Shown here in pieces: positions 1-16,562 of a stretch of 50,819 nt of DNA. The translations under genes and the position numbers were made by a program. This DNA comes from Candidatus Avispirillum sp. (GTDB lineage Bacteria > Bacillota > Clostridia > Oscillospirales > CAG-272), in the NCBI GenBank assembly GCA_045545335.1, contig JAZQAS010000027.1, forward strand, positions 1 through 50,819. Reading direction: 5' to 3'. The notes under the pieces are model-generated. The model was not told where the DNA came from, did not search any database, and saw only the letters and a program-made list of their open reading frames with translations. How positions within the stretch are numbered: the stretch's first letter is position 1; each line of letters opens with the position of its first letter.

Positions 1-599
1 TATGTTTTGTAGCTTGCGGCGAGAAATCCAACACCGATAAACAATCAACCGAAGGCACAAATCAAAGCGAAAGCAATAGCACTGAGAACTCTATCACAAA
101 TACGCAATCAACTGAAAGTACAAACCAAAACGAAACTGATAACATCGAAAACACAGACCATAATACTGAATCAACCGAAAGTACAAACGAAAACGAAACT
201 GATAGCATCGAAAACACAGACCATAATACTGAATCAACCGAAAGTACAAACGAAAACGGTACCAACAACCAAGAAATCGCCATTTTCAACACGAAAAACA
301 TTAAACGCATCACCTTCTATGCCTACTATGGTAACGGTAAAGGTAGCGATGTTCCTGCCGAACATTTAGATGAAATGATAGCTTGGCTCGATTCGTTTAA
401 GATTGATACCGATAGGGAGTTTCCCGATTTGGTTCCTCCTGGTACAAACACTATCCATGTAGAAATTGAGTATCTTGATGGAACTGTTGTTAAAGAAGGT
501 TTAGATACGGCAACTGTTGGCGGAATCACATACTACATAAAAGGTGACACCGCTCCCGAGTGCTATGAAGAAATTGTATCAAAGACAAGTTTGAATTAA
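1..599 (+). CDS. Lipoprotein-like secreted protein, 5' end cut by window edge; Thr/Glu/Ser/Asn-rich repeat linker plus C-terminal globular domain
   Basis: Frame from nt 3 is open to TAA 597-599. Translation starts ..CFVAC/GEKSNTDKQ (lipobox-like FVAC), then TESTNxNETDxIENTDHN repeats, then ITFYAYYGNGKGSDVPAEHLDEMIAWL... The ORF track lists only the Met-initiated tail 375-599. Confidence 0.6.
   Translation, partial: CFVACGEKSNTDKQSTEGTNQSESNSTENSITNTQSTESTNQNETDNIENTDHNTESTESTNENETDSIENTDHNTESTESTNENGTNNQEIAIFNTKNIKRITFYAYYGNGKGSDVPAEHLDEMIAWLDSFKIDTDREFPDLVPPGTNTIHVEIEYLDGTVVKEGLDTATVGGITYYIKGDTAPECYEEIVSKTSLN
108..257 (+). repeat. 63-bp in-frame tandem repeat, two full units plus partial third
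   Basis: Units begin at 108, 171 and 234 (tcaacYgaaagtacaaacSaaaacgaaactgataRcatcgaaaacacagaccataatactgaa). Period 63 nt = 21 codons. Confidence 0.85.
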
Positions 600-813
600 C
601 GAATTGTATTTCCTTCTTTTGCGGATAGCACCACAGGCAAATATCAAAGGTTGATAGGAGATTAATTTCCCTTGATTTACCCTTGAATTTCGAACAAGCT
701 TCTGCTTTTCGTAAAGCAAATGGTGAATATGTAAGGAAAAATCAATGGAAAGATACCACTTTAACGGTGTATATCGACATTGATTAACAATAAAATATTT
801 AAAAGCGTATCAT

Positions 814-846
814 TAGCAATAGTGATACGCTTTTTCTATAAAAATC
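814..846 (+). terminator. Rho-independent terminator-like hairpin after a short remnant ORF
   Basis: gcgtatca (814-821) / tgatacgc (833-840) stem followed by ttttt. Preceded by a 34-codon ORF remnant ending ..NQWKDTTLTVYIDID*. Confidence 0.45.
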
Positions 847-885
847 CCCTCGAACATTTAAAATTCAATTACACAAAAGACCTGT

Positions 886-915
886 CCTACGGGTCTTTTC
901 TTTATTAGATCAATT
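886..915 (+). terminator. Second terminator-like hairpin
   Basis: aagacc / ggtctt stem with 9-nt loop, followed by ttttctttatt. Confidence 0.4.
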
Positions 916-1115
916 TCATTTCTTGTTTAGTAAAAAATCTTTTTCTTTAGCACCAAGTATTGTATGTAAACAAAGAAGGGGCGGCTATGCCACCCCTTCA
1001 AGGTATTTATTGAGCATTTCAGTCACAAGGCACCTGATAGCACCGTATCCTCAAATTATATTTCTCTATCTCACTATAAATCACATAATCCTTATCATAA
1101 GTTCGTCTTAGCATA

Positions 1116-1190
1116 GGGCGGCAAAACCGCCGCCCTTGAGCTGGTTATTCAGTTGTTTCAGTTGAAGACACAGAACTGTCCCCTGTCTTT
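1116..1190 (-). repeat. Cassette-junction element, copy A (conserved 47-mer 1135-1181 plus GC hairpin 1116-1135)
   Basis: Minus strand: GGACAGTTCTGTGTCTTCAACTGAAACAACTGAATAACCAGCTCAAG then GGGCGGCGG-TTTT-GCCGCCC. The 47-mer is identical to 3305-3351. Confidence 0.9.
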
Positions 1191-2083
1191 CCTATTTCTC
1201 TCTGTACCTCTACAGTCATCTTCGCGCTTTCGCAGGCTACTTTGACGTAAACGGTCTTACCAGAAATCCCTTCCAAAAGCATTTCTGTTTTTTCGTTTAT
1301 GTTTACCTCTCGGTAAAGCTTATTATCGATAAAAACAAATACTTCCATATTACCAGACTCAACAGTGTTAGTTATACAGAGCTTCATACTGTCGTCATCG
1401 GTCTTTGTAGCGTTTGCAATAAATATTCCACTAATGGAATGAGCTGAGTATCTTGTTTTATCATAGTCAACGCCTTTAAGCGATTTGTCGGCAATATCAG
1501 AAGATGAACCTTCAACTTCTAAGCCAAAAGCAAAGGCAGTGTTTTTGCTATAAAGCGCGTTAGCAATCTCCTCATCCGTTATACTGACTACGGAAAAATC
1601 ATCGGGACCGTTTGAATCTTCGATCGTTTTTTCGTTTGAAATCATGAAGGAGTATATTATTCTATAACAAGCAAACACGGTTACTACAATAGCAAAAATG
1701 ATATGAGGCACTATTATCAACGCTATTTTATGCCTCTTAACAAAGAGTTTAAACTTATCCATTGCAGTGCTTTGGCTGTTTTCATCATTTTTACCCTTCT
1801 GTGAAGCTTCTACTTGAAGATGAATAAAATACATATTTGTGAGAAAAAGAAGCAAAGCAGAAACTATAAAATTAAGGACAAGATGTTCTCCCGTCATTAT
1901 CACACCGTTTACAATAGTAATTACAATAGCTGAAATGAAAAAATTCAATCCATATTTTAACCAACTAAAAGCGGGAGCTTTTCTTTTTTGTAACTCAATA
2001 TATGTAACAATTGCAATAAACAAAGTAGACCAGAAAGGGATAAAGCTTATCCATTGCTGGATTTTTTGAAACTTAGATAACAT
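1145..2083 (-). CDS. Hypothetical membrane protein: about 5 N-terminal TM helices plus ~170-aa C-terminal soluble domain (immunity-like cassette)
   Basis: 312-aa ORF with ATG at 2083 preceded by AAAGGAG at 10-nt spacing. Hydrophobic segments run through residue ~150. Ends with DSSVSSTETTE encoded by the junction element. Confidence 0.65.
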   Translation of the reverse strand: MLSKFQKIQQWISFIPFWSTLFIAIVTYIELQKRKAPAFSWLKYGLNFFISAIVITIVNGVIMTGEHLVLNFIVSALLLFLTNMYFIHLQVEASQKGKNDENSQSTAMDKFKLFVKRHKIALIIVPHIIFAIVVTVFACYRIIYSFMISNEKTIEDSNGPDDFSVVSITDEEIANALYSKNTAFAFGLEVEGSSSDIADKSLKGVDYDKTRYSAHSISGIFIANATKTDDDSMKLCITNTVESGNMEVFVFIDNKLYREVNINEKTEMLLEGISGKTVYVKVACESAKMTVEVQREIGKTGDSSVSSTETTE

Positions 2084-2130
2084 AATGAGGTTGCTCCTTT
2101 ATACGATCTATATCCAAGTCGAACGATACA

Positions 2131-2229
2131 CCCATACCAGTTGGTAGGATTACCAAGCTCGTCGTATTCGATCTCCTCACCCCAATATGAGGTAAGCAGG
2201 TCTGCCCACGTGCAGATTCTATCAACCCT
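2131..2229 (-). pseudogene. Isolated RHS/YD-repeat fragment (about 33 codons)
   Basis: Translation RVDRICTWADLLTSYWGEEIEYDELGNPTNWYG matches the ..LTSY.G..I.YD..GNP...Y.G YD-repeat pattern of Firmicute RHS/WapA-type proteins. No start codon or RHS core around it. Local GC is higher than the island. Confidence 0.6.
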
Positions 2230-2285
2230 CATCCACCGCCCTTCGGCGGTCCCCCTTCCCCCCAATCATGGGGGAAGGCCTTACT

Positions 2286-2345
2286 GGGCGGCGGGGTTGC
2301 CGCCGCCCTTGGGTCAGTTATTCAGTAGTTTCACTTGAACCCCAA
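2286..2345 (-). repeat. Cassette-junction element, copy B (diverged, with hairpin 2286-2308)
   Basis: Minus strand GTTCAAGTGAAACTACTGAATAACTGACCCAAGGGCGGCGG-CAAC-CCCGCCGCCC aligns with copy A. Lies just after the stop of the 2365-2742 gene. Confidence 0.8.
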
Positions 2346-2364
2346 ATTCTTTCCCTGTCATTTG

Positions 2365-2742
2365 CTAAGAAAAAGTAGATAAAATCAAATTATATCGGGA
2401 AACAAATCTTTCTGATTCATACAGTTCAAGCGTACTTGTATCGAAAACTAATTTGTAGGTGATGTCTGTTTTTGGCAATGCATTCTTCCCATCAAAAAAA
2501 GCAATGTTTTCATCAACAAAAAATGCTCCGCAACACAATGTGCTGGTTTTGTCTTTTGCCTCTTTTGTAAATGTGATCTGATCGTTTTTATAATATTTTA
2601 CATACAGGTACTCACTTTCGTTTTCATAAACCTCAAATTTCCATACATACCGTTCTCTATAAAAATATGTGCCGAAACCGATTAAGCAAATAATTGTAAA
2701 CAGCAATAATACTGACAATATGATTATAAACTTGTTAGTCAT
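2365..2742 (-). CDS. Hypothetical single-TM small protein (125 aa)
   Basis: ATG at 2742 preceded by TAGGAGAG. N-terminal helix MTNKFIIILSVLLLFTIICLIGFGTYF followed by a soluble domain. The TTG start at 2799 in the ORF track is unlikely. Confidence 0.6.
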   Translation of the reverse strand: MTNKFIIILSVLLLFTIICLIGFGTYFYRERYVWKFEVYENESEYLYVKYYKNDQITFTKEAKDKTSTLCCGAFFVDENIAFFDGKNALPKTDITYKLVFDTSTLELYESERFVSRYNLILSTFS

Positions 2743-2819
2743 ATCGAACTCTCCTAATCGGTCGAAAATATTTATACGGAGCAACGGTGGTATGTCCAAC
2801 TTGTATAGAATCTGTTACA

Positions 2820-2876
2820 CCGCCGCCGGCCTTTGGTAGTTATTTATCTGTTTTGCCCTAAGACACAGAAGCGTTT
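2820..2876 (-). repeat. Cassette-junction element, copy D (diverged, second hairpin arm missing)
   Basis: Minus strand GCTTCTGTGTCTTAGGGCAAAACAGATAAATAACTACCAAAGGCCGGCGGCGG aligns with copy A. Supplies the last codons ..ASVS* of the 2858-3286 gene. Confidence 0.7.
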
Positions 2877-3286
2877 CCTGCCTTTGCTCCCGTTCTTCTT
2901 ATTTTCGCGTGAACATAACCCCTTGCGATCAAAAAGACAAGCTGGATAACACAAGTAATTGATATGTGTATTATTTGGGTTGTTTCCATTTGGCCGTACT
3001 CTATCGAAGTTACTACAACGTTGATTAAATAAAACGATATGTACGTTAATGTTGTTACACCAAAAACAATACAATCATAGATAAATAATGCTTTAGCGTG
3101 CTTATGCTTTCCGTTTTTTAAAAAGTCTTTGTAATAGATATATGAATCAATACATATATACAAGATCAAAAGCAACGGAATTATGTATCTGAAAGGAGAA
3201 TCCTCAGGAAAAAAAGAGCGTATCATCGTACCCGTGAAGAATAAATATCCAAATGCAACGTAATGCAGAAATATAAATATTTTCAT
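2858..3286 (-). CDS. Hypothetical 4-TM small membrane protein (142 aa)
   Basis: ATG at 3286 with GGAGAG RBS 28 nt after the stop of the upstream gene. Strongly hydrophobic, AT-rich codons. Confidence 0.6.
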   Translation of the reverse strand: MKIFIFLHYVAFGYLFFTGTMIRSFFPEDSPFRYIIPLLLILYICIDSYIYYKDFLKNGKHKHAKALFIYDCIVFGVTTLTYISFYLINVVVTSIEYGQMETTQIIHISITCVIQLVFLIARGYVHAKIRRTGAKAGNASVS

Positions 3287-3304
3287 CGCGTTTTTCTCTC
3301 CGTT

Positions 3305-3362
3305 CTTGAGCTGGTTATTCAGTTGTTTCAGTTGAAGACACAGAACTGTCCACTATCTTTGC
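3305..3362 (-). repeat. Cassette-junction element, copy C (47-mer 3305-3351 identical to copy A; no hairpin)
   Basis: cttgagctggttattcagttgtttcagttgaagacacagaactgtcc is identical at 1135-1181 and 3305-3351. Downstream it runs straight into the RBS of the next gene. Confidence 0.9.
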
Positions 3363-3800
3363 GGTCTGTCTCTTTACCAGACACATTCTTGTACCGATAA
3401 ACAAGCCTCCCACAACTATGTCTATTAACGTACTGATAGCTATAAACGGTAGCGCTTGCGCAAAGGTATCACCTTCTAAAGAAACAGAAACACTAAACAC
3501 AATAAACAATATGCTTAATGCAATGAAATATAAAAACAACAATGAGTCAATTATCATAAAGAGCCGGACAGTAATCTTACGTGTTGATCTACTGATAAAA
3601 TACTTGATTGCAAAGTAATCCACAAAAATATAAATCAATGTTGCCAATTGTATTAAAATAGCTTCTAAATATGACAGTTCACCTATTATATCTACTTCAC
3701 CAATAAAAAATGCAGAATGATAGAAAAAGAATGCAAATAATATTGTATGAAAAAAGAAATATAAAAACCTAATGCCATAAAATGTGATTTTATTTAACAT
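3315..3800 (-). CDS. Hypothetical 5-TM membrane protein (161 aa), immunity-like
   Basis: ATG at 3800 overlaps the stop of the upstream ORF (ATGTTAAATAA). Hydrophobic throughout. C-terminus ..VDSSVSSTETTE is shared with the 1145-2083 protein. Confidence 0.6.
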   Translation of the reverse strand: MLNKITFYGIRFLYFFFHTILFAFFFYHSAFFIGEVDIIGELSYLEAILIQLATLIYIFVDYFAIKYFISRSTRKITVRLFMIIDSLLFLYFIALSILFIVFSVSVSLEGDTFAQALPFIAISTLIDIVVGGLFIGTRMCLVKRQTAKIVDSSVSSTETTE

Positions 3801-4158
3801 ATTTGCGACCTTCCCAAAATATTATTTCAGGCCTGGTGGATATCATTTCATTTCTTGTATTATTAAAATTAGCGTATCCATTTTCAGGCATATTATATCC
3901 AGATGCTATTTCTCCAGCTTCTACTATGTCGACTGCTGCTTTATAACTATTTGAATAATCTCCCTTCAATATAGTTGCATAATCGTAACCTGATTTATAT
4001 TGGTTACTGGCATTTACACTCTGTAAAATGCTTTCTTCTGTTAATTCACCACTATAATCAAATTCTTTTAACCAAGTTTTTAATGGTACATCTTTATGGC
4101 TAAAAAAACTATGTAGAAGATTTGAAATTCCATCGGCCCCCAGTAAAAATGATACCAA
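3790..4158 (-). CDS. Orphan soluble ORF (122 aa), possibly the 3' remnant of a larger toxin-like gene
   Basis: Only a TTG start, 1 nt after GGAG (poor spacing), and no ATG. An adjacent out-of-frame peptide ..RYDENGDWYHFYWG would fuse in frame if the G5 run (C-run 4137-4141 on +) gained one base. Its 11-nt overlap with the downstream membrane-protein gene is typical of toxin/immunity coupling. Confidence 0.35.
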   Translation of the reverse strand: MVSFLLGADGISNLLHSFFSHKDVPLKTWLKEFDYSGELTEESILQSVNASNQYKSGYDYATILKGDYSNSYKAAVDIVEAGEIASGYNMPENGYANFNNTRNEMISTRPEIIFWEGRKYVK

Positions 4159-4214
4159 TCTCCGTTTTCATCGTAGCGGCTACGGAGATAGCAGAATATT
4201 CTATCCGCATTTTC

Positions 4215-4243
4215 ATTATATCATTAGAATTTGTATTTGTCAA
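4215..4243 (-). promoter_or_regulatory. Near-consensus sigma-70/SigA promoter driving the cassette array
   Basis: Minus strand TTGACA (4243-4238), 17-nt spacer, TATAAT (4220-4215). Confidence 0.6.
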
Positions 4244-4357
4244 CCCGAGCGCGCGCGCTGTTTGGGCGAAAAAAGCGATCTTTCGGTCAGCGTTTATATT
4301 AATTGCATTATAAATCTAATCTTTTGCAACTGCACTGCAAACAGGCAACCATCAATC

Positions 4358-4387
4358 AAAAGCCACTCTTCGGAGTGGCTTTTTTAT
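4358..4387. terminator. Bidirectional terminator-like hairpin at island border
   Basis: agccactc-ttcg-gagtggct (4361-4380), with tttttt after it on + and an A-run before it. Confidence 0.5.
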
Positions 4388-4532
4388 TTCATTTTGTAAA
4401 TCCGAGGAGCTATTTTGTCAGATACTGTTCCATTTTGGAATTAATGTGATATAATATACAAAAATTATTGAGGAAATAACGTTGGCTACCAAGGAAAATA
4501 TCATATACTTTAACGACGAGGAGTTCGCCTTT

Positions 4533-5507
4533 ATGAAAAAGATAATATTTGCGGCCGTTGCTGTTTTTGTTGTTCTCGCGTCACTTTCGGGTTGCGCAAG
4601 GAACGCTCCGAAGGGAGACCCCGATTTTGACCTTTCCGGCCTGGATTTTGTGAATACAGACTGGGAACGCCACACCGGCTCCTGCACTGAGACCATATAT
4701 TTTAACGACGACGGAAATTGCGGCTACTACTGCGCCTGCGGCAACCCCGTAAACGACGACGATCTCTGCGAGGGATATTCCTACGACCCCGAAACCGAGA
4801 CTATTCATCTTGACTTTCCCTCCTCTGTCAAGGGCGTAGTAAGAGAGATAGCAGTTAAAAGCTGCGACGGCGAGACTTTGGTGCTTGACTTTGAGGGCGA
4901 CGTACGCACCTTTGAAAAAGCACCGGACGACGAAGGGGATGACGAAGGACCCCAGGCCGGAGACGCTATTTCATACAAAGAAGAGACCTACACCTATCTC
5001 GAATTCCCCGCCGATATCTTCTGCTACGATCTTACAAAAGGACTTGAGAATTACGAGGAGGACGAGTTCTACCCCGTGGATCACGAAAAGTGGGATATCA
5101 TTTTTTACAACGGAGATCTTTTCGTGCTCTCATCTCAGGCCGAAGAAGCTATAGAATATTACAGCGACCGCGCAAGCTATACCTGGTCAGTTATTATTTA
5201 CGACCCCAACGACGACCCCTGCGGACCTTACCCTCTCACCGTAAGTGACGGGGAAAGCGACTTTATTTACGGAATGGAGGAGCTTGAGCGCGACAAGACT
5301 CTTGCCTTTGACGATATAGAGAGCTTTGCTTCTCTCGTTAAGATAAGCAAGGACGGCTTTATCTCCGGTACTGCAAGCCTTGCAGGACGCGACGGCGTTT
5401 GGTACTGGCGCTCGGAGATCATAGACGACACCGCCGAAGGCTGGCCCGAATACGTCGTTCCCCTTCCCGAGGCTGTTATCACTCAGATAAACGGCCTTTG
5501 CAAATAA
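4533..5507 (+). CDS. Hypothetical lipoprotein (Asp/Glu-rich)
   Basis: ATG 4533 after GAGGAG. Signal peptide MKKIIFAAVAVFVVLASLSGC has lipobox LSGC. GC-rich codon usage like the core genes. Confidence 0.75.
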   Translation: MKKIIFAAVAVFVVLASLSGCARNAPKGDPDFDLSGLDFVNTDWERHTGSCTETIYFNDDGNCGYYCACGNPVNDDDLCEGYSYDPETETIHLDFPSSVKGVVREIAVKSCDGETLVLDFEGDVRTFEKAPDDEGDDEGPQAGDAISYKEETYTYLEFPADIFCYDLTKGLENYEEDEFYPVDHEKWDIIFYNGDLFVLSSQAEEAIEYYSDRASYTWSVIIYDPNDDPCGPYPLTVSDGESDFIYGMEELERDKTLAFDDIESFASLVKISKDGFISGTASLAGRDGVWYWRSEIIDDTAEGWPEYVVPLPEAVITQINGLCK

Positions 5508-5535
5508 TAATTATAAAAAAGACTCGGAGGTGCTT

Positions 5536-6807
5536 ATGAAAGCAAGGCTCGGCGCAAAATTCTGGATAGCTCTCACCGTTTTCAGCCTCATCGGCCAGGT
5601 GGCCTGGGTGGTTGAAAATATGTATTTCAACGTTTTTATCTACAAGATGTTCTCCGCCGATGCTGCGGATATCTCCAATATGGTGGCTCTCAGCGCCGTT
5701 TGCGCGACCTTGACCACCGTTTTTATGGGCGCCCTCTCCGATAAGCTCGGCAAGCGCAAGCTCTTTATCTGCCTCGGATACGTGCTTTGGGGCATCTCCA
5801 TCTTCAGCTTCGTTCTTCTGAGAGAGGACTATATCTCCGCGGCCTTCTCAGGCGCTGTATCCGCCTGCTCCGTCGGCATCAGCCTGACTATCGTCCTCGA
5901 CTGCGTTATGACCTTCTTCGGCTCTACGGCCAACGACGCCGCCTTTAACGCCTGGCTCCCCGACTCCACCGACAAGACCAACCGCGGCGCCGCAGAGGGC
6001 ATCAACGCTATGATGCCTCTCGTCAGCATCCTCTGCGTTTTCGGCGGCTTTATGTTCTTCGATCTTGAGAAAAAGGAAAGCTGGAGCCTTATCTTCACCA
6101 TCATCGGCTCCGTTGTAACCCTCATCGGCATTCTCGGCTTTTTCATCATCAAGGAGCCTGCCGTAGCCCCCTCCAAGGACTCCTACATAGGCAACATCGT
6201 CTACGGCTTTCGCCCAAGGACCATTGGCCAAAACCCCGACCTCTATATCTGCCTTTTGGCCTTTATCATATTCAATATCTCCATCCAGATATTTATGCCC
6301 TACCTCATTATCTACTACGAGGTCTCTCTCGGTATGAGCGACTACGTTATCGTTATGGCGCCTGCCATCATCATTGCCTCCGCTGTTACCGCGCTTTGGG
6401 GCAGAGTTTACGACAAGAGGGGCTTTCGCTTCTCAGGCGTCTTCGCCGTCGGCGCTTTGCTTCTGGGCTACGCTGTCCTCTTTTTCACCCGCGCAAAGCT
6501 GCCCGTGTTTTTCGGCTCCCTCTTTATGATGAGCGGATACCTTGCGGGGATGGCGGTCTTCGGCGCGGCAATTCGCCATAACACCCCCGAGGGCGTTGCA
6601 GGCAGGCTTCAGGGCATTCGCATCTTTTCTCAGGTGCTGATCCCCGGCGTTGTCGGCCCGATGATCGGCAAAACCGTTCTGAAAAGCGCCGAGGTCATCA
6701 CAAACTCCGACGGCACTACCTCATTCGTTCCAAACGCCAACATATTCCTTGCCGCCGCTATCGCACTTATATTCGTCATCCCTGTGTTCTTTAAAAAGAA
6801 ATCGTGA
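5536..6807 (+). CDS. MFS-type transporter (about 12 TM)
   Basis: ATG 5536 lies 5 nt after GGAGG. Twelve hydrophobic segments with a central loop. GALSDKLGKRK after TM2 resembles the MFS loop motif. Confidence 0.65.
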   Translation: MKARLGAKFWIALTVFSLIGQVAWVVENMYFNVFIYKMFSADAADISNMVALSAVCATLTTVFMGALSDKLGKRKLFICLGYVLWGISIFSFVLLREDYISAAFSGAVSACSVGISLTIVLDCVMTFFGSTANDAAFNAWLPDSTDKTNRGAAEGINAMMPLVSILCVFGGFMFFDLEKKESWSLIFTIIGSVVTLIGILGFFIIKEPAVAPSKDSYIGNIVYGFRPRTIGQNPDLYICLLAFIIFNISIQIFMPYLIIYYEVSLGMSDYVIVMAPAIIIASAVTALWGRVYDKRGFRFSGVFAVGALLLGYAVLFFTRAKLPVFFGSLFMMSGYLAGMAVFGAAIRHNTPEGVAGRLQGIRIFSQVLIPGVVGPMIGKTVLKSAEVITNSDGTTSFVPNANIFLAAAIALIFVIPVFFKKKS

Positions 6808-6862
6808 TAAAAGTAACGGATACGCAAAAGCCTCCCAAATAGTCCTCCGAATATATAAGAAG

Positions 6863-6888
6863 AAAATCGCATCCTTTGATGCGATTTT
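6863..6888 (+). terminator. Terminator of MFS gene
   Basis: aaaatcgcatc / gatgcgatttt hairpin. Confidence 0.55.
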
Positions 6889-6912
6889 CAACAACAATTA
6901 TTCATTATTCAT

Positions 6913-6941
6913 TAAAAAAGCTCCTCTTTTCAGAGGAGCTT
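6913..6941 (-). terminator. Terminator of asnS
   Basis: agctcctc-ttttca-gaggagct hairpin followed on the minus strand by TTTTT. Confidence 0.65.
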
Positions 6942-6948
6942 TTCAATA

Positions 6949-8364
6949 TTAGAACTCCGCAGAGCCTGTGGTTCTGGGATAGGGGATAACGTCGCGGATA
7001 TTGGAAACGCCTGTGAGGTACATGATGATACGCTCAAAGCCAAGGCCGTAGCCCGCGTGCTTTGTGGAGCCGTAGCGACGGAGGTTTACGTACCACCAGT
7101 AGTCCTTCTCCTCAAGGCCGCACTCTGCCATTCTGGAAAGAAGCACGTCAAGACGCTCCTCTCTCTGGCTGCCGCCGATGATCTCACCGACGCCGGGAAC
7201 GAGAAGGTCCATTGCGGCAACGGTCTTATTATCATCGTTCAAGCGCATATAGAAGGCCTTGATCTCCTTGGGATAGTCTGTTACGAATACGGGAGCGTTG
7301 AACACCTTCTCAGTCAGGTATCTCTCGTGCTCTGTCTGGAGGTCGCAGCCCCAGCTTACGGGATACTTGAAGTCCTCGCCGGACTTAAGAAGAAGGTCGA
7401 TGGCCTCGGTATAGGTAACGGTCTTATACTCGCTGTCTGCAAGCTTTTCAAGTCTTTCAAGGAGGCCCTTATCAACAAAGCTGTTGAAGAAGTTGAGCTC
7501 TGCCTTGCAGGTTTTCAGAACGTGGCGGATGATATAGATTATCATATCCCACGCAAGCTGCATATTATCCTTAAGATCGGCAAATGCGATCTCGGGCTCG
7601 ATCATCCAGAACTCTGCCGCATGGCGGGGAGTGAAGGAGTTTTCAGCGCGGAAGGTGGGGCCGAAGGTATAGATATTACCAAAGGCCTGCGCATAGGTCT
7701 CGCCCTGAAGCTGACCGGAAACGGTGAGGCTCGTGGGCTTCTTGAAGAAGTCCTGAGACCAGTCGATAGAGCCGTCCTCAAGACGGGGAGGATTATCCAT
7801 ATCGAGAGTCGTTACGTGGAACATCTCGCCTGCGCCCTCGCAGTCGCTACCCGTGATAAGAGGAGTATGAACGTATACGAAGCCTCTCTCATGGAAGAAT
7901 GAATGGATAGCATACGCTGTTTCGCTTCTTACTCTGAACACTGCAGAGAAGAGGTTTGTACGGGGACGGAGATATGCGATCTCGCGGAGATACTCAACTG
8001 TATGACGCTTCTTCTGAAGGGGATAGTCGGGAGTTGAGGTGCCCTCGATCTCAACCTCCTCAGCCTTCAGCTCAAAGGGCTGCTTTGCGCCGGGGGTGAG
8101 GACGAGAGTGCCCTTTACGACGATAGCCGCGCCAACGTTGAGGCTCGTTACCTCAGCGTAGTTTGCAAGCTTCTGATTTTCAAGAACGACCTGAAGAGAC
8201 GTGAAATAGCTTCCGTCGTTAAGATCGGCAAAGCCGAACTCGTTTGAAGCGCGAATGCTTCTCGCCCAGCCTGCAACGGTTATCTGTTTTCCGTCGTAGC
8301 TTTCGGGGGATCTATAAATATCGGAAATAAGTTCTCTTTTCAAAGAAACCACCGCCTTTTTCAA
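6949..8364 (-). CDS. asnS: Asparagine--tRNA ligase
   Basis: Class IIb aaRS motifs are present: [32 protein letters not shown] and [15 protein letters not shown]. The start is TTG in the track, so the exact start is uncertain. Confidence 0.9.
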
Positions 8365-8490
8365 TATAAACTACCAATTATTTTATCACACACGGCAACT
8401 CTTGTCAATATTATAATTCACATATAAATCGCCCTTAAGTCCAATTATTGCCCTTCTAAGGGATATGCGAGCCCCATTTTAAAGAACAGC

Positions 8491-8518
8491 AAAAAACCGA
8501 CGGAGACCGTCGGTTTTT
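8491..8518 (-). terminator. Terminator of dockerin-protein gene
   Basis: aaccgacgg-agac-cgtcggtt hairpin, with TTTTTT following on the minus strand. Confidence 0.7.
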
Positions 8519-8529
8519 AACGTTATTTA

Positions 8530-9738
8530 TTAAAATCCGCTGATGGAGCCGGAGACGAACTGGGTGAGGATATTGGAGTCCTTACCGTTGATCTCGCCGT
8601 CAAAATTCACGTCTGAGGCCATTTTCTCAGTTTGTGTGGGGAGGAGCGAGCCGCTTACGAATTTCTTCAGGGTGTTGGAGTCCTTACCGTTTATATCACC
8701 GTCAGCATTGATATCTCCGAGAGTATACGCAGGCTCGGGCTCGCCGCAGGCCGTGCAGGCGCCCTCCACGAAATCGTGGCCCGTTGCCTCTACCAGGAGT
8801 GCCTCGGCTGTTGTTTCAACGGTGCAATCGTCATTTTCATAATACTTATCGCAAACAGAGCAATACCAATACTCCTGCATACCCGCCTCGAGGCAGGTAG
8901 GATCAACGGAGGGGACGCACTCGACAGCGTGGCCCGTGGAAGGCTCGAAATAGCCCTCCTTGGCGTTATCCACAAGGCGAAGAACGAACACAGCGTCAAC
9001 AGCTGAGCCGTTGGTTATGCTGAAAGCGTAGTGAGGAGCGATCATTGCTCCGTCTGTGGCTGCGGGGAAGGAGAACTCTATCTTTCCGTCGCCGTCAAAA
9101 TCAACGTATTCGGTGGTGCCGTACGTGACGGTAGCATTTGCAACAGCTTCTGCAGGGCCCTCAAGGATAACGCCCTTGCCTGCATAAACGCCTGCCGTAG
9201 AACCGTCAAGATAGCATACGGTTTTATTTGAGCCCACGGGAGCTGTAAAGCCGTCCGCGCTCTTTACTCTTACGGGGTCTGAATCAAGAGCGGTAACCAT
9301 ATCAAGGCTCACGTACATCTTGCGGGAAGGAATATTTCCCTCCTCATCGGGGAGAGCCCACATACCGATCTTCACCTCGGTGCCCTTGGTCACTCTAAGG
9401 GTGGAAACGGGGTTTGAAAACACCGTATCGTTTGCATAGTATCTTTTATCGCCGATCTCAACCACCAGCTGATAATCATAAACTCGGTTTCCGTCTGCAT
9501 CGTTGGCGGCATTCTCGACAGAAACAATTCCTGCGCTTGGCGCTGCAAAGGAATACCAGATACCGTCGCTGTCACCTTCCTCAAGGGTATTATTGAGAAG
9601 ATACATTCCGTAAAACTCCGTGGGAGCCATGGGATCGTCATAGGTGCCGAGAGCATCTGCGGCACTCACGCTAAGGCCAAAGGACATACAGCCCAGAAGC
9701 ATTGCGAAAAGGGTAAGTATAGCTACTGTTCTCTTCAT
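8530..9738 (-). CDS. Secreted protein with C-terminal type-I dockerin
   Basis: ATG 9738 after GGAGGAA. Signal peptide MKRTVAILTLFAMLLGCMSFGLSVSAADA. The C-terminus has duplicated Ca-binding loops DINADGDINGKD ... DVNFDGEINGKD. A Cys-rich segment CSVCDKYY..CTACGEP is also present. Confidence 0.85.
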   Translation of the reverse strand: MKRTVAILTLFAMLLGCMSFGLSVSAADALGTYDDPMAPTEFYGMYLLNNTLEEGDSDGIWYSFAAPSAGIVSVENAANDADGNRVYDYQLVVEIGDKRYYANDTVFSNPVSTLRVTKGTEVKIGMWALPDEEGNIPSRKMYVSLDMVTALDSDPVRVKSADGFTAPVGSNKTVCYLDGSTAGVYAGKGVILEGPAEAVANATVTYGTTEYVDFDGDGKIEFSFPAATDGAMIAPHYAFSITNGSAVDAVFVLRLVDNAKEGYFEPSTGHAVECVPSVDPTCLEAGMQEYWYCSVCDKYYENDDCTVETTAEALLVEATGHDFVEGACTACGEPEPAYTLGDINADGDINGKDSNTLKKFVSGSLLPTQTEKMASDVNFDGEINGKDSNILTQFVSGSISGF

Positions 9739-9880
9739 TATTCCTCCGTGGACATAATTAATAAAAAAGCACACGACTATTATACCTTTTTTTGTGCCAA
9801 AAAGCAATATCAATTGAACACAAACAATTTATTTGAACTTATATCCAATTAATCACGCTTGTTTTTGTCACATTTATCAA

Positions 9881-9919
9881 TAAAAAAGAGACGGCAACGG
9901 CAATTGCTGTCTCTTTTTA
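9881..9919. terminator. Bidirectional terminator-like hairpin
   Basis: agagacggcaa / ttgctgtctct stem flanked by an A-run and a T-run. Confidence 0.6.
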
Positions 9920-9925
9920 TATCAT

Positions 9926-12079
9926 TTATCCCATTTTGGACATCTGCCTCTGAGCCATTACAAGCTCAAAATAGATGCCCTTTCTTCTCATAAGCTCATC
10001 GTGAGTTCCGACCTCGGCGACCTCGCCGTGATCGAGGACCACGAGTCTCGTTGCATTTCTGAGGGTTGAAAGCCTATGGGCAATGGCAATGGTAGTTCTG
10101 CCTGAGATGAGCTGCTGGAGCGCATCCTGGATATCCTTCTCCGTTTCCGTATCGAGGGCGCTGGTCGCCTCATCGAGAATGAGAAATCTCGGATCGTGCA
10201 GAAGGGCTCTCGCAATGGCAACTCTCTGACGCTCGCCGCCCGAAAGAGTATATCCCTTTTCGCCGATGACAGTATTATATCCGTCTGCAAGCTTTACGGC
10301 AAACTTATGTACTCCCGCAAGCTTTGCGGCGGTTATTACCTCATCGGGAGTAGCGCCGGGCTTTGAATACGCGATATTATCGTAAAGCGTTCCCGAGAAC
10401 AGCATGGTCTCCTGCAGAACTACGCCCATCTGACGGCGCAGAGACTCCTGAGTGATATCTCTGATATCAACGCCGCCGATGGAGATGGAGCCTGCATCGG
10501 GATCGTACATTCTCATTATAAGGTTTATGAGAGTGGATTTACCAACGCCCGAGCGGCCGACGATGCCTATCATCTCGCCGGGCTTGATATTCAGATTGAT
10601 ATTATGAAGAACGGTATGTCCGTTCTCATATCCGAAGGACATATTCTTGATCTCTATCTCGCCTGCAGGCTCAAGAGCTCTCGCATCTGCTCTGTCCTCA
10701 ACGTCGCACTCCTCGTCTATAACGTCAAACACCTTTGCAACGCTCGTCATAGTCGTGGTGATGCGGCGGGGCATCATAGCTATCCAGCGAAGGGGGCCGT
10801 ATATAAGGCTTACGTAGGAGGAGAACTGCTGCATCTCACCGAAGGTCATCTCACCGGAAAGGATGGCGTTACCCACGAAATAGAGAAGGAAAAATTCGCC
10901 AACGCCCATAAGAAAGCTGGTTATGGGGTTGATAACGGCGAAATAGGTCTCGTTATCTATTCGAACGTCGCACTCTTCCCTGATGGACTTATCGTAACGA
11001 GCCCTTTCAGCCTTTTCCGTTCCGAAGGCCTTGACAACTCTGATGCCTGAGAAGATATCGTGGAGTATGGTATTGGCCACAGCTCCCATATGCCACTGCC
11101 TGCCGTAGCGCGCTCTGAGGAATCTCCACATAAGTCTGTGGGAGAGGATGATAAGGGGCATGGGGGCGATAATGAGAAGTGCGAGGCGCCAATCGTAGAT
11201 AAACAGCACGGTTCCCACGCCGAGAAGCATAAGCACCTGCTCTATAAGAGAGCCGATATCGTTTGTTATAAACTGCTGGATATGGGCCGTATCCTCTGTG
11301 ACGCGGTTCATAAGCTCACCTGAGGTGCGCTTTGAAACTCGGGCAAGGGACAGATGCTGTATCTTATCGAAAATGATGGATCTCAGACGCACAATGAGCT
11401 TATTGCTGGCCTTGAGCTGAGTATAGGTCCTCAGCATTCCGAGGAGGCGGGATGCGAGGTTTACTATAAGTATCATTGCAACTGCGAGAACGTACTGCCC
11501 TACCTTGGGAAGGCCCTCTGCGCGGATGAAATCATCAACGAGGATCCTGTTGAAATAAGGGAGGAGCAGGTTTATTCCCGCAATGACGAAATAGAGAAGG
11601 ACGGAAAGATATATGAACTTTCTGTAAGGCTTTGCAATAGTCCAGAGCCTTTTTATATACTGTCCCTTCTTTTCGCAATGGGGGCATTTTTTAGAGCCGT
11701 GGGGAAAGGGCCTATGGCACTTGGGACAAAGAACTCCCTCCTCGATATTCTCCGAATTCTCAAAGGTACCATCCTCAAGGCAGCGGTTAAGTATCTTCAC
11801 CGCATTTGCGAAGGTATCGTTCTTTTCCATACTGCCGCGGCATATAAGTATCTCTCCGCCCTCAAGGCTTTCAGCCTCAAGAAGAGCGCAGCCAACACCC
11901 ATACCGCATTTATAGCTCTTTATATTATCTGTTTTAACGGTGCGCATCCCCTCTGCGCCCCATATCTCTATCCTGTCGGGATAGAAGTCAGCTCTGCCCT
12001 CTGTTCTTTTCCTGCCTGAATTGCCGGAAAGATCAAAGGTCACGCTGACGTACGGTGCTTTATTCTTCGTTTCTGCCAT
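9926..12079 (-). CDS. ABC exporter fused permease/ATPase with ~150-aa N-terminal cytosolic domain and zinc ribbon
   Basis: Walker A GRSGVGKST, signature LSGGERQR and Walker B ILDEATSALD, with 6 TM helices before the NBD. The N-terminal extension carries CPKCHRPFPHGSKKCPHC. Confidence 0.85.
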   Translation of the reverse strand: MAETKNKAPYVSVTFDLSGNSGRKRTEGRADFYPDRIEIWGAEGMRTVKTDNIKSYKCGMGVGCALLEAESLEGGEILICRGSMEKNDTFANAVKILNRCLEDGTFENSENIEEGVLCPKCHRPFPHGSKKCPHCEKKGQYIKRLWTIAKPYRKFIYLSVLLYFVIAGINLLLPYFNRILVDDFIRAEGLPKVGQYVLAVAMILIVNLASRLLGMLRTYTQLKASNKLIVRLRSIIFDKIQHLSLARVSKRTSGELMNRVTEDTAHIQQFITNDIGSLIEQVLMLLGVGTVLFIYDWRLALLIIAPMPLIILSHRLMWRFLRARYGRQWHMGAVANTILHDIFSGIRVVKAFGTEKAERARYDKSIREECDVRIDNETYFAVINPITSFLMGVGEFFLLYFVGNAILSGEMTFGEMQQFSSYVSLIYGPLRWIAMMPRRITTTMTSVAKVFDVIDEECDVEDRADARALEPAGEIEIKNMSFGYENGHTVLHNINLNIKPGEMIGIVGRSGVGKSTLINLIMRMYDPDAGSISIGGVDIRDITQESLRRQMGVVLQETMLFSGTLYDNIAYSKPGATPDEVITAAKLAGVHKFAVKLADGYNTVIGEKGYTLSGGERQRVAIARALLHDPRFLILDEATSALDTETEKDIQDALQQLISGRTTIAIAHRLSTLRNATRLVVLDHGEVAEVGTHDELMRRKGIYFELVMAQRQMSKMG

Positions 12080-12091
12080 TGCTTTCCCCCG

Positions 12092-12640
12092 TTACAAGTA
12101 AAGCTCAAGCTTTCTGAAGCTCTTTTTGTCAAGTGCCGAAAGTGATTCTATCTCGTATCTGTTTCCGCAAATGTCAAAAACGAAGGCGCGGTCCTCGCCA
12201 AGCCTTGAAATGCTTCTTGAGGTATCCTGCAAAGTGAAGGTAAGCTCCCCCGCATCGCTCATAACGCGCCAGAATGAGAAGCCTCTCGTTTCCTTGAGGG
12301 TGATTATCTTCTCGATCTTCGGAGTATAATACTTTCTTTCAAGCTCAGCGCGGATGAGCTCTGCGGTCTCCTCGCTGAATGCGCTTACGGAGCGGATAAG
12401 GCCAAGCTCCTCCTGATCCTTATTCTGAACGGAGATATACTCGAAGGGCATATTGAAGGGGAAGGAGCGATGGAGCCATACCCTCTCAAATCTTTCCGTT
12501 TTCATTTCTCCGTTCTCATCGGGGAGAGTCAGCTCAGCGCCCAGAAAGTCACAGCTTTTGAAAAACGCGGCGTTCTCCTCTGTCAGATATACTATCCCCG
12601 CCGCATCGGCAAGGGTGTATATATTTTTATTTTCACTCAT
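12092..12640 (-). CDS. DUF1854-like protein (small cytosolic protein characteristically sandwiched between two ABC exporter genes)
   Basis: 182 aa with the segment FERVWLHRSFPFNMPFEYISVQNKDQEELGLIRS. The family name is from memory. The position between two ABC half-transporter genes fits. Confidence 0.6.
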   Translation of the reverse strand: MSENKNIYTLADAAGIVYLTEENAAFFKSCDFLGAELTLPDENGEMKTERFERVWLHRSFPFNMPFEYISVQNKDQEELGLIRSVSAFSEETAELIRAELERKYYTPKIEKIITLKETRGFSFWRVMSDAGELTFTLQDTSRSISRLGEDRAFVFDICGNRYEIESLSALDKKSFRKLELYL

Positions 12641-12661
12641 ATAGATTTCCTTTCCTTGGCT

Positions 12662-15040
12662 TTACTCGCCGACGCCTGCGTTCTTGAGAGCCTGATACTG
12701 AAGAGTATACAGCTTGAAGTAGATGCCCTTCTTCTGTATAAGCTCCATATGGCTTCCCTCCTCTGCCACCTTACCGTTTTCAATTACGAAAAGCTTTTCG
12801 CAATCGCGGAGGGTGGAAAGGCGATGGGCTATCATAATGGTGGTTCTGTTTTCCGTCAGCTTCTCAAGCGCTCGCTGGATGCTTCTCTCGGTCTTCGTAT
12901 CCATTGCGCTGGTGGCCTCATCGAGAATAAGTATCTTCGGGTCGCGAAGGATTGCGCGGGCTATGGAAACTCGCTGTCTCTCGCCGCCCGAAAGCTCCTT
13001 ATATCCCCAGCCGAGGCGGGTAGCATATCCGTCGGGCAGCTTGATTATAAAATCGTGGGCTCCCGATATCTTTGCCGCGGTTATTATCTCCTCCACCGTT
13101 GCATCGGGCTTTGCATATTTGATATTATCAAGTATGGTGCCCTGGAAAAGATAGGTCTCCTGAGAAACGATGGCAACGTTTTTTCTGATGGTCTCAAAGG
13201 AAAGATCGCGAACGTCGTAGCCGTCGATGGAAATAGAACCCATATCCGTATCGTAAAGGCGGATAAGCAGGTTTGCAATGGTGGATTTGCCTGCGCCCGT
13301 ATGGCCGACGATGCCTATCTTTGACCCTGCGGGAATATCAATGGAAACGTTTTCGATGACCTTTCTCGTTTTATCATAGCCGAAGGTCACGTCAGAGAAG
13401 CGGACTGCGCCGTCTATGGACTCAAGGCGCACAGGGTCCTCCTTTTCAAAGACCTCGGGCTCTGCATCCATGACCTCCATAAGGCGGTACGTAGCGTTGA
13501 AGCAGTTAGTTACGCTCTGGGTTATATTAACGAAGAACATAAGGGGGCTCATCATCATGCCCGCGTATGCCGTGAAGGTCATAAGAGTACCGTAGGTCAG
13601 CTCGTCTATAATAACGAGCCAACCGCCCACTCCCAGAACGAGAGTTGAGCTGATGACGAAAAGGAAGGTGGCCATGGGGAACACCGTTCCCGAATAGAGG
13701 CCGGACTCAAAATCAGCATTGGCAAGACGCTCGCTTCGCTTATTGAATCTGCCGATCTCGTCCCTCTCTCTTGAGAAGGCCTTGACCACGCGCACGCCCG
13801 AAAGCACGTCGGAGAGCATACCGTTCATTGAGCGGGATGCGGAGAAGCGCTTTGCGTGGAACTTCTTCATCTTATGGGAAAGGCCCTTGATGATGAAGAA
13901 TATGAGGGGGCAGAAAACGAGAGCAACGATGGAGAGGCGCCAGTCTATGAAGAACATGATAACGCCAACCGCCACGGTCTGCACCACGTTTACGATAAGA
14001 TAGGGCAGTCCGTCAACAAAGAACCAATAGATGGTATTGGCGTCTCCGTTTACCTGATTCATAAGAGCGCCCGTTCTGCGGTTCGTATAGAATGAGAGAG
14101 AAAGCCTCTCTACGGAATCGAAAATGGTCTTTTTCATATCGTAGACCAGCTTCGGAACTATTCTCGCCGTTATGATATTATTGACCATATCAACGAGGAG
14201 GGAAACTATCCTCATAGAAACTATGAGAAGGATAACGAGAATGACCTGACCGTAGAACTTACCGCCCACAGTCAGTACCTGATCGTAATAAAATCCCGAG
14301 CTGATATAGGGGGAGATAACTCCAAGAGCGCTGACCATTGCCATTGCAAGAAGGATGAGCAGAACGCTGAACTTATATCTTCCGAGAAAGAACATAAGCC
14401 GCTTGATAACGCTTGCCTTATCCATACAGTGGGGGCATATCTTATTATGAGGATCGGGATATCGCCTCTGACATTTCGGGCAATATTCATCCTCCTTTTT
14501 TCTTCTTCCGTGAGGCCCGCCGGGGCCGTGGGGTCCGCCGTGAGGTCCGCCGGGGCCGTGAGGGACGTGGGGATGATCCTCCTTTTGGGGATGCTCCTCT
14601 CCCTCGGGGCCATCCTTTTTATCGCCCTCGTTAAGAAGGCGGCAAAGCTCCTGAAAATCCTCCTCATACTGACCTGTCAGATAAGTGATGAGGCAATAGG
14701 AGCCTGTATCCTTATTATAGGCCGTTAAAATACAGCCTGATATCTGCTTTTCCGTTTTAAAATCGGAAAGGGGCCTTCTGTCAAGCCTCTTTTCCGATAT
14801 CTTTCCGTAGCGGACGGTCAGCTTTTTGGGGTCGCGTTTCTTTACCCCCTCCTTCGGCACTACAAGCTGAATGCCGCCGATCATAACTATCTCCTCCTCT
14901 GTTACAAGGAGCCAGTTATCGCAATATACTCCGTCGCTATCCTTATCGGCGCGGGCTGCGAAAAGGATATCCTTTTCAAGGACACCGTATTTCTCGGCCT
15001 CGCGAAATACCTCATCGGGTATTCTGTCAAACTTTATCAC
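12662..15040 (-). CDS. ABC exporter fused permease/ATPase with ~220-aa N-terminal domain, His/Gly/Pro tract and zinc ribbon
   Basis: Walker A GHTGAGKST, LSGGERQR and ILDEATSAMD. GTG start 15040 after GGTGA. The N-terminus contains HPHVPHGPGGPHGGPHGPGGPHG followed by CPKCQRRYPDPHNKICPHC. Confidence 0.85.
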   Translation of the reverse strand: MIKFDRIPDEVFREAEKYGVLEKDILFAARADKDSDGVYCDNWLLVTEEEIVMIGGIQLVVPKEGVKKRDPKKLTVRYGKISEKRLDRRPLSDFKTEKQISGCILTAYNKDTGSYCLITYLTGQYEEDFQELCRLLNEGDKKDGPEGEEHPQKEDHPHVPHGPGGPHGGPHGPGGPHGRRKKEDEYCPKCQRRYPDPHNKICPHCMDKASVIKRLMFFLGRYKFSVLLILLAMAMVSALGVISPYISSGFYYDQVLTVGGKFYGQVILVILLIVSMRIVSLLVDMVNNIITARIVPKLVYDMKKTIFDSVERLSLSFYTNRRTGALMNQVNGDANTIYWFFVDGLPYLIVNVVQTVAVGVIMFFIDWRLSIVALVFCPLIFFIIKGLSHKMKKFHAKRFSASRSMNGMLSDVLSGVRVVKAFSRERDEIGRFNKRSERLANADFESGLYSGTVFPMATFLFVISSTLVLGVGGWLVIIDELTYGTLMTFTAYAGMMMSPLMFFVNITQSVTNCFNATYRLMEVMDAEPEVFEKEDPVRLESIDGAVRFSDVTFGYDKTRKVIENVSIDIPAGSKIGIVGHTGAGKSTIANLLIRLYDTDMGSISIDGYDVRDLSFETIRKNVAIVSQETYLFQGTILDNIKYAKPDATVEEIITAAKISGAHDFIIKLPDGYATRLGWGYKELSGGERQRVSIARAILRDPKILILDEATSAMDTKTERSIQRALEKLTENRTTIMIAHRLSTLRDCEKLFVIENGKVAEEGSHMELIQKKGIYFKLYTLQYQALKNAGVGE
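14508..14560 (-). repeat. 30-nt-period direct repeat encoding the (H)GPGGPHG tract
   Basis: ccgtgaggcccgccggggccgtg (14508-14530) and ccgtgaggtccgccggggccgtg (14538-14560), 22/23 identical. Confidence 0.8.
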
Positions 15041-15111
15041 TTACTTTATTCACCAATCCTTTAAATCTGCTCAGCAGGGCTTGCGCATTTTACAAGCTGT
15101 ATGCGCTTTTT

Positions 15112-15156
15112 GCAAAAATCAGGGGAGGCGCTGCACGACTGCAGCGCTCTCCCCCA
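15112..15156 (-). terminator. Terminator of RpiB-like gene
   Basis: Minus strand GGGGAGAGCGCTGCAG-TCG-TGCAGCGCCTCCCC followed by TGATTTTT. Confidence 0.7.
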
Positions 15157-15165
15157 AAAAATCTA

Positions 15166-15747: not shown

Positions 15748-15877
15748 ACTATCTATACCTCCGACAGATAAAATTAATTATTCTTTCATTATTTTAGCAT
15801 CCTAACCCTTTTTTGTCAATCAATTATCCGTTTATTTTACATTGTTTACAAAAAATATGAATTTTCATTTTTTCCTC

Positions 15878-15906
15878 TTTTCAAAGTAAAAAACGGGTGC
15901 TATAAT
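15878..15906 (+). promoter_or_regulatory. Extended -10 promoter for the 15937 gene
   Basis: ttttca, 17-nt spacer, then tgcTATAAT (15898-15906). Confidence 0.45.
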
Positions 15907-15936
15907 ATTCCCGTAAAAAATTCAGGAGGTTGGCAT

Positions 15937-16476: not shown

Positions 16477-16484
16477 TATTTTTG

Positions 16485-16512: not shown

Positions 16513-16562
16513 GATATTCTTTAAAACCGGAAAGAACGTCGAAAAAGGCGCGGCTTTTATTG

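Follow-up and report, generated by a model that had tools for sequence, protein, structure and literature searches.

We describe here a junction element, J, that closes each of four consecutive genes (C, D, B and A) on the minus strand of a 50,819-nucleotide (nt) stretch of DNA from Candidatus Avispirillum sp. (contig JAZQAS010000027.1, positions 1 to 50,819; the window, in what follows, is this whole stretch). In our judgement the island formed by these genes is probably a decayed Rhs (YD-repeat) polymorphic-toxin orphan array that has turned into a four-gene poly-immunity operon, with J as the downstream homology block of its modules. J most likely serves as a block of homology for recombination, and its hairpin may in addition be an RNA 3'-end or stability element, a role compatible with recombination. 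What has been observed directly are the copies of J, where they stand with respect to immunity genes (seen in three contig lineages), the lack of the window's peptide tail in homologues of gene A, and the deletions of toxins. The initial annotation of this DNA had recognised the junction and missed its Rhs polymorphic-toxin context, namely the immunity-type genes, the toxin remnants between them and the same junction in other Rhs arrays. Given that context, and the presence of the same junction in other Rhs orphan arrays, found in a small number of Clostridia from the ruminant gut, J is not a new class of element and represents a variant of the known toxin/immunity homology blocks.

One element closes four unrelated genes

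The initial annotation had claimed four minus-strand copies closing four consecutive genes, and both methods applied here recover them: repeat finding, as a four-member family (1144-1193, 2317-2366, 2839-2888 and 3314-3363), and an nhmmer profile of J, which finds these four copies only in the whole 50.8-kb window. They are copies of a single element, which is real as first described but longer, measuring ~100 nt in place of the ~55 nt originally assigned to it, since all four copies have a 5' stretch of ~15 nt in common (AGCAAAG.CAGGG) and J extends ~20 nt 3' of its hairpin. J begins with an AT-rich half on its 5' side, which carries stop codons in two or three frames; a GC hairpin (GGGCGGCGG-loop-CCGCCGCCC) comes next, and ~20 nt complete the element. 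The stem shows no covariation, and an nhmmer profile was sufficient to describe J. The degenerate pattern TGAAACNACTGAATAACNNNCNCAAG matches copies A, B and C, with 0 matches in 100 shuffles. As had been noted, copies A and B keep the GC hairpin, and they are the only ones in the window to do so; copy C has lost it, the next ATG lying 20 nt on, and copy D is truncated within the hairpin loop. The exact identity of copies A and C over 47 of 47 nt (1135-1181 versus 3305-3351) was reproduced to the nucleotide, whereas the abrupt end attributed to it was not, because similarity continues at ~70% for ~30 nt further 5'; in repeat finding the pair is 87% identical across 79 nt.

No similarity is detectable among the four proteins beyond the tail, in agreement with the initial reading of recombination at a common junction, not paralogy. 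Proteins A and C match over their last 20 amino acids (aa) only. Paralogy of C and D was considered and rejected: their 26% identity, with E = 5e-5 when uncorrected, falls to E = 2.5 with compositional adjustment. Genes A and C both read through J to ...DSSVSSTETTE*, so that their last 11 residues are identical, gene D stops inside the element (..NASVS*), and in the case of gene B the element lies after the stop codon, all of which is as first reported. In copy B a 1-nt deletion leaves ..SSETTE* reading out of frame with gene B.

The tail is not a native part of protein A. Homologues of this protein, at 35-61% identity, come from ruminant-gut metagenomes, and the eight that we aligned, seven of which are 54-61% identical to it, all finish at ..VEREI with 0-4 further aa, which makes the 12-15-aa tail foreign to the gene A family. 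The tail GKTGDSSVSSTETTE is present only in the window protein and absent from 8/8 aligned homologues.

The island probably derives from Rhs toxin/immunity modules

Gene A ties the island to Rhs toxins. Its homologue P0004, from the Clostridia metagenome-assembled genome GCA_017416205.1 (locus L007), lies 9 nt 3' of a 614-aa RHS-repeat open reading frame (ORF), and the homologues in L007, L016-L019, L021 and L022 are found at this same distance of 9 nt downstream of Rhs C-terminal toxin ORFs. The two L007 Rhs ORFs that were scanned score 57.7 and 78.9 bits for RHS_repeat (cutoff 22). The toxins 5' of gene A homologues all end in ..GFGPPT.G.G.SFDLDID.LK*, and the toxin C-terminus reads ..GFGPPTTGLGYSFDLDIDKLK* in L007, L016, L021 and L022. 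From this conserved gene order we predict that gene A is the immunity protein of an Rhs C-terminal toxin.

The window retains pieces of such a module. A fragment at 2137-2214 (minus strand) is 77% identical over 26 aa (E = 1.7e-11) to three L007 ORFs, two of which were scanned, both being RHS_repeat-positive; the 72-aa window Rhs fragment itself has no Pfam match. Upstream of gene A, this fragment joins the last 17 codons of the toxin at the shared microhomology CCAACT, a fusion which indicates that an internal deletion of ~1.1 kb lost the toxin and kept the immunity gene. The core-end motif ..YYDPxxGRFxxxD, which stands before the toxin domain in L007 and L016, is deleted in the window. As far as its sequence allows us to judge, the locus in the window descends from an Rhs orphan array and is not an active toxin locus.

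In two of the loci with gene A homologues, a large serine recombinase (Resolvase + Recombinase + Zn_ribbon_recom + DUF4368; L016:915-2528 and L017:604-2217) is encoded directly 5' of an orphan Rhs C-terminal toxin (191 aa) and its gene A homologue, in an AT-rich lineage without J. This hints that some toxin/immunity modules may travel on serine-recombinase elements.

The same junction in other Rhs arrays

L007 is an array of four Rhs-fragment-plus-small-gene modules, and J-like elements follow all four of its immunity genes (1221-1301, 5034-5119, 7919-7999 and 10894-10976). When these modules are compared with each other, homology is limited to the Rhs core (to ~3989/6511/9442) and then J, the toxin-plus-immunity segments between them being unrelated; the variable segment therefore has a conserved block on either side. 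In this array a canonical terminator lies ~40 nt past each of the terminal copies, J1 and J4, and J2 and J3, the copies in between, run straight into an internal Rhs position. A J-like element also follows the gene A homologue of L022, and L012 has a 24-nt partial match only, to the 5' half of J. Among the genomes compared by profile, J occurs outside the window only after Rhs-linked immunity genes.

The consensus of J over the window and the other loci is ..AAAG.CAGGGGACAGTTCTRTGTCTTCAA.TRAAACA..TGAATAAC.A.CCCAAGGGCGGCGG-loop-CCGCCGCCCTGCCGTAAAAGACCT.., in which the block TGAATAAC (followed by TGA in some copies) is the best-conserved part outside the hairpin. Since this block places stops in two or three frames, any ORF entering J ends quickly. 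Pairwise identity over the J core is 53-79%, within genomes and between genomes alike, and the sole outlier is the window A/C pair, with 94% over the core and 100% over 47 nt. This distribution suggests that J is an old component of Rhs modules and that the A/C identity is recent. The 3' ends of J are ragged: copy C is cut at the hairpin and copy D in the loop, and copy B is followed by extra hairpins and the Rhs fragment. Together with the joints of J2 and J3 in L007, such ends fit homologous plus illegitimate recombination.

Beyond these arrays, exact-pattern scans (GAAACNACTGAATAACNNNNNCAAG) of GTDB representative genomes, JGI metagenomes and viral contigs returned chance matches only, and a blastn search of J against plasmid and phage collections gave no match. 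Near-matches in L001 (3375-3409) and L003 fall in one shared leader region upstream of metK (S-adenosylmethionine synthetase), ..GAAACAACTGAATAACCTTATCAAGAGTGGCGGAGGGA.., which we take to resemble an S-adenosylmethionine riboswitch; the other matches are unrelated. We judge the 17-nt identity of this leader to the J core to be due to chance.

Several further features touch the ends of J. Between copy B and the Rhs fragment lie two more GC-rich hairpins (2215-2265, minus strand), CCTTCCCCC..GGGGGAAGG and ACCGCC..GGCGGT, which with that of copy B make three stable hairpins in a row before the Rhs fragment; the region 2215-2362 folds with a minimum free energy of -62.8 kcal/mol (z = -3.5). A far longer run of GC-rich palindromes follows a gene A-like gene in L012 (970-1330). 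At the other end of J, its first ~15 nt in the window (ATAGGAAAGACAGGGGA; 1182-1208, minus strand) resemble the sequences with which gene A homologues natively close, ATAGGAATGCAGTGA and ACAGGAGCGCAGTGA (L016:4195-4215 and the L025 end, respectively), and in L021 GAAAGACAG stands directly past the stop codon of the gene A homologue. Speculatively, this resemblance may mean that the terminal part of a gene A-type gene gave rise to the 5' end of J.

A model for recombination within J

The register in which ORFs end relative to J varies from copy to copy. The stop codon is reached in frame through J in window genes A and C and in imm2 of L007 (..GSMCSSNLSE*), lies inside J in window gene D, and comes before J in window gene B and in L007 imm3 and imm4. 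Within the tail, variability at codon positions 1, 2 and 3 is 0.48/0.33/0.25, the reverse of a coding signature. We regard the shared peptide tail, on this pattern, as a by-product and not a domain.

We propose that, in this Rhs lineage, each toxin/immunity module has J after its immunity gene, and that the conserved blocks of the variable toxin-plus-immunity segment would be the Rhs core on the 5' side and J on the 3' side. Whether modules recombine with one another or with incoming DNA, by RecA-type recombination or by gene conversion, the event would resolve inside J, because J would be the first downstream homology past an otherwise unique immunity gene. As a result of crossovers resolving there, unrelated immunity ORFs would run into the same sequence, stop at TGAATAAC and gain the same few codons; J would in this way be grafted onto unrelated ORFs, at times replacing their last codons. 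The 47-nt A/C identity would represent a recent conversion or exchange over copies otherwise 53-79% alike, and microhomology deletion or illegitimate joining would later have removed the toxins and parts of J (copies C and D). In the operon so formed, one consensus promoter would drive transcription and one terminator would end it. From what is generally known of RecA, the 47-nt direct repeats, 2.17 kb apart, are a plausible substrate for the loss or duplication of cassettes D, B and A.

Several points weigh against this model. (i) Only one of the four cassette genes, gene A, is tied to an Rhs toxin; C, D, B and the small ORF T122 (see Table) were assigned as immunity genes or toxin remnant by position, size and transmembrane (TM) content, and have no detectable homologues, D and B having been compared with Pfam. 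(ii) There is no full-length rhs gene in the window and no long Rhs ORF in the island, upstream of which stand a promoter and unrelated plus-strand genes. (iii) J is not a general feature of gene A-type modules, as it was not found with the homologues in L016-L020, L023 and L024; in the set L016-L020 and L023-L025, gene A homologues of other lineages either lack J or lie on contigs that end before the downstream region. (iv) No recombination event was seen directly, and exact-protein look-ups with A, C and the asparaginyl-tRNA synthetase returned no other contigs and hence no strain variants. (v) That the hairpin is so well conserved from genome to genome could be due to a function in RNA or DNA, and not to homology alone.

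Alternative explanations

This last point leads to the alternative that J is kept mainly as a functional RNA, be it a block to 3' exonucleases, an RNase processing site or a partial terminator, with recombination as a side effect; the hairpin would then lend stability to the individual immunity cistrons or, where the Rhs array is complete, shield the immunity gene from the silent orphan that comes after it. Across two genomes, conservation of J is indeed highest in the hairpin and its flank (CCCAAGGGCGGCGG..CCGCCGCCCTGCCGTAAAAGACC), the folds are stable (z from -2.5 to -3.9), and in L007 J1 and J4 the hairpin is paired with the canonical terminator downstream. However, the conservation of the stem involves no covariation, the hairpin is lost from two of the four copies in the window (C and D), whose genes look intact all the same, and the hairpin carries no U tract and is not called by the terminator scan. 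Rfam 15 has no match overlapping any J copy at E <= 1. We therefore hold it unlikely that an RNA function is what mainly maintains J, although such a function is compatible with the homology-block explanation. The narrower proposal of a shared terminator, raised in the initial annotation, was rejected in its canonical form: TATGCTAAGA in copy A and AGTAAGGCC in copy B follow the hairpin with no U tract, and the terminator that the scan does call is the one at 999-975.

A dedicated site for cassette capture or exchange, acting through an unlinked recombinase or through hairpin-promoted template switching, appears improbable to us. If J were such a site, immunity arrays would be assembled without a linked integrase, J would be a Gram-positive counterpart of rAID-1, and it would bring its own terminator for captured ORFs, in the form of the multi-frame stop block. 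The more specific version, in which J, like attC or the rAID-1 intergenic repeats, is the target of site-specific recombination, and an unlinked recombinase captures immunity genes as integron-like cassettes, is quite improbable. In its favour, the island is an array of unrelated small genes in the same orientation, each followed by a conserved hairpin repeat and with skewed GC; the orphan immunity arrays of rAID-1 carry integron-like intergenic repeats (bioRxiv 10.1101/471110), and recombinases adjoin some poly-immunity loci (Zhang et al., PMC3482391). The co-occurring recombinase suggested initially was, however, not found: neither the island nor the scanned ORFs next to it encode one (5530-23796; the ORF <1-599, the asparaginyl-tRNA synthetase ORF and the remaining window were unscanned), and 20 kb of L007 have only a weak match to an IS1595-like transposase, 3.5 kb off and on the other strand. 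The serine recombinase of L016 and L017 belongs to a lineage without J. The stem of J is short, GC, near-perfect and of 7-10 bp, and not a long imperfect attC palindrome with paired R and L boxes, and J has no second arm complementary to its 5' half. Moreover, the cassette boundaries are ragged, and Rhs fragments and toxin remnants lie between the cassettes. The attC architecture, with R''/L'' and L'/R' boxes, a GTTRRRY core and precise boundaries, was compared with J and rejected as a description of it.

That a small repeat, mobile or dispersed and of the type of miniature inverted-repeat transposable elements or repetitive extragenic palindromes (REP), gave rise to J by chance insertion at gene ends is highly improbable. 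J is short and has a hairpin, and REP-like GC palindromes exist elsewhere in the window (~16690-16795 and 19959-19984), but these belong to a different sequence family; J itself lacks terminal inverted repeats and target-site duplications, is found nowhere else in the 50.8 kb, is absent from the plasmid and phage collections, with chance matches only in the wider scans, and elsewhere stands only after Rhs-linked immunity genes. Finally, a C-terminal tag shared by cassette proteins was another initial suggestion; that selection maintains DSSVSSTETTE in such a role, for sorting or degradation, is scarcely credible and effectively refuted, because the identical ends of A and C and the related ..GSMCSSNLSE of L007 imm2 are outweighed by gene A homologues without the tail, by the stop register that varies between copies and genomes, by genes B and D that encode no such tail (copy B being frameshifted), and by third codon positions that vary least.

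The island and its surroundings

The island (~900-4250, minus strand) has a GC content of 33-38%, compared with ~50% in the flanking genes, which include those for a dockerin protein, ABC transporters, feoB and fucose isomerase, a gene set in keeping with a Ruminococcus-like host of cellulosome type. Its four consecutive ORFs are each preceded by a Shine-Dalgarno sequence, and its features are collected in the Table. With respect to what defines poly-immunity loci, the same orientation, short spacing, one promoter and one terminator are present, toxins are represented by remnants only, and of the four genes only gene A has support for a role in immunity.

Table. Features of the island, in order along the minus strand
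Feature	Coordinates	Strand	Remarks
Promoter	4215-4243	minus	Consensus sigma-70, TTGACA-17-TG-TATAAT, with extended -10 TG; 12/12, the sole 12/12 match in 1-4600
YD/Rhs-like fragment ..SRYDENGDWYH..	4150-4185	minus	Runs out of frame into the next ORF; short, weak evidence
ORF T122	3790-4158	minus	Stop overlaps gene C ATG
Gene C	3315-3800	minus	161 aa, multi-TM, immunity type; last 11-12 codons from J
J copy C	3300-3378	minus	Cut at first hairpin base, junction 20 nt before gene D ATG; repeat finding and profile
Gene D	2858-3286	minus	142 aa, multi-TM; stop TAG within J
J copy D	2812-2888	minus	Diverged, only hairpin 5' arm remaining; profile E = 3.5e-11
Gene B	2365-2742	minus	125 aa, one TM helix plus soluble domain; stops just 5' of J
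J copy B	2266-2366	minus	Intact 9-bp GC hairpin, 2286-2308; repeat finding and profile
Rhs core fragment CTWADLLTSYWGEEIEYDELGNPTNW	2137-2214	minus	77% aa identity to three L007 ORFs
Last 17 codons of gene A's cognate toxin, PTGMGVSFDLDIDRIKE	2094-2144	minus	Out-of-frame fusion to Rhs fragment
Gene A	1145-2083	minus	312 aa; last ~12 codons from J
J copy A	1095-1208	minus	Complete; hairpin 1115-1136; profile E = 3.8e-20
Intrinsic terminator of the operon	999-975	minus	11-bp stem, then TTTGTTT; sole canonical terminator on the strand

The YD/Rhs-like fragment listed second in the Table is similar to the beginning of the L007 orphan (1366-1403, GCTACGTGTACGATGAAAACGGAAATGTGGTATC). T122 is, by its position, the putative 3' remnant of a toxin cognate to gene C. 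Neither a search of 5.8 billion proteins nor a library of 1.84 billion proteins contains homologues of T122, and the former search found none for gene C. Pfam has nothing significant for any island ORF, with no match at all for A, C and T122; for genes B and D, for which Pfam was the only database checked, there are sub-threshold matches only (in the case of B, a weak one to DUF3139, below cutoff). T122 and gene C, at least, appear to be lineage-specific ORFans.

Consensus promoters are also found before immunity-type genes in L012 (1-70 and 3351-3420), in L021 (~1120-1150) and in L023 and L024, which suggests that orphan immunity genes may be strongly expressed in these organisms. Converging on the island, a plus-strand ORF that starts before position 1 and runs to 599 is AT-rich and lipoprotein-like (..VACGEKS lipobox), and contains three 63-nt tandem repeats (43-276) encoding 21-aa units (TESTNENETDSIENTDHNTES); judging by these features it could be another immunity-type lipoprotein. 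Elsewhere in the window, the REP-like palindromes (TTGTAGGGACAGGCGTCC.. and ..GTCGGGGACGCCTGTCCCTACAACAA) flank feoB (17271-19304) and include a 26-nt exact repeat, and a 29-nt exact direct repeat (26031-26059 and 26757-26785) lies within an 831-aa minus-strand ORF (25379-27874).

Discussion

Conserved homology blocks are known from toxin/immunity arrays (PMC9484751, PMC5361080, PMC3482391), and the comparison of J with these and related systems reveals both similarities and differences: (i) The closest layout is that of the Rhs orphan rhs-CT/immunity arrays of Salmonella and E. coli (Koskiniemi et al. 2014, PMC3967940), in which a partial Rhs core, a variable C-terminal toxin and an immunity gene are repeated in tandem and the conserved sequence is the substrate of homologous recombination. 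L007 has this same layout and the window keeps remnants of it. In those arrays, however, the known homology is the 5' Rhs core, whereas here there is a second, 3' block that overlaps the immunity stop codon; here, too, the host is a Gram-positive Clostridium, and the window array has neither toxins nor a main rhs gene. (ii) As in the esaG/tipC arrays of type VII secretion systems in Firmicutes (Garrett et al. 2022, PMC9484751), a block that covers the gene end and the intergenic region is common to tandem immunity genes. In the S. aureus esaG arrays, this block, over the gene end and the downstream intergenic region, is a demonstrated site of recombination at which genes are lost and gained (PMC9484751). 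Those genes are paralogues that share internal blocks as well, whereas the genes described here are unrelated and have the 3' junction only in common, and the toxin is Rhs and not LXG or a type VII secretion system toxin. (iii) Strings of immunity genes have been described as relics of the replacement of toxin tips, giving rise to heterogeneous poly-immunity loci (Zhang et al. 2012, PMC3482391), and the orphan immunity arrays of the V. cholerae type VI secretion system as the result of effector displacement (Kirchberger et al. 2017, PMC5361080). The window resembles both in the same orientation, close spacing and unrelatedness of its genes, which are probably co-transcribed, and in a toxin displaced or deleted. 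In our reading, neither of these two papers describes a conserved junction element at the 3' ends of immunity genes, and the V. cholerae model relies on illegitimate recombination facilitated by homology and has no specific sites (PMC5361080). (iv) The rAID-1 arrays of Bacteroidales have repetitive intergenic sequences and a recombinase (Ross et al. 2019, bioRxiv 10.1101/471110), and with these and with integron attC arrays the island shares orphan immunity genes, skewed GC and repetitive intergenic sequences. In contrast to our island, they have a linked tyrosine recombinase and, in integrons, attC-type sites, neither of which was found here. Taken together, what distinguishes the present case is that mutually unrelated genes share the block, that the block overlaps stop codons, and that it belongs to Rhs modules of Gram-positive anaerobes.

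Our results suggest that conserved DNA flanks the variable Rhs segments on both sides, in one lineage of gut Clostridia at least. Such two-sided bracketing would permit clean swapping of modules by double crossover, as well as the loss and gain of immunity genes mediated by the repeats, and would explain why a meaningless C-terminal tail is common to unrelated immunity proteins. The window is also a clear example of how toxins are lost and immunity is retained, with microhomology deletion leading to a strongly promoted poly-immunity operon in what is probably a rumen organism of cellulosome type. For the annotation of islands of this kind, the lesson is that C-terminal peptides common to their proteins are by-products of recombination and not domains.

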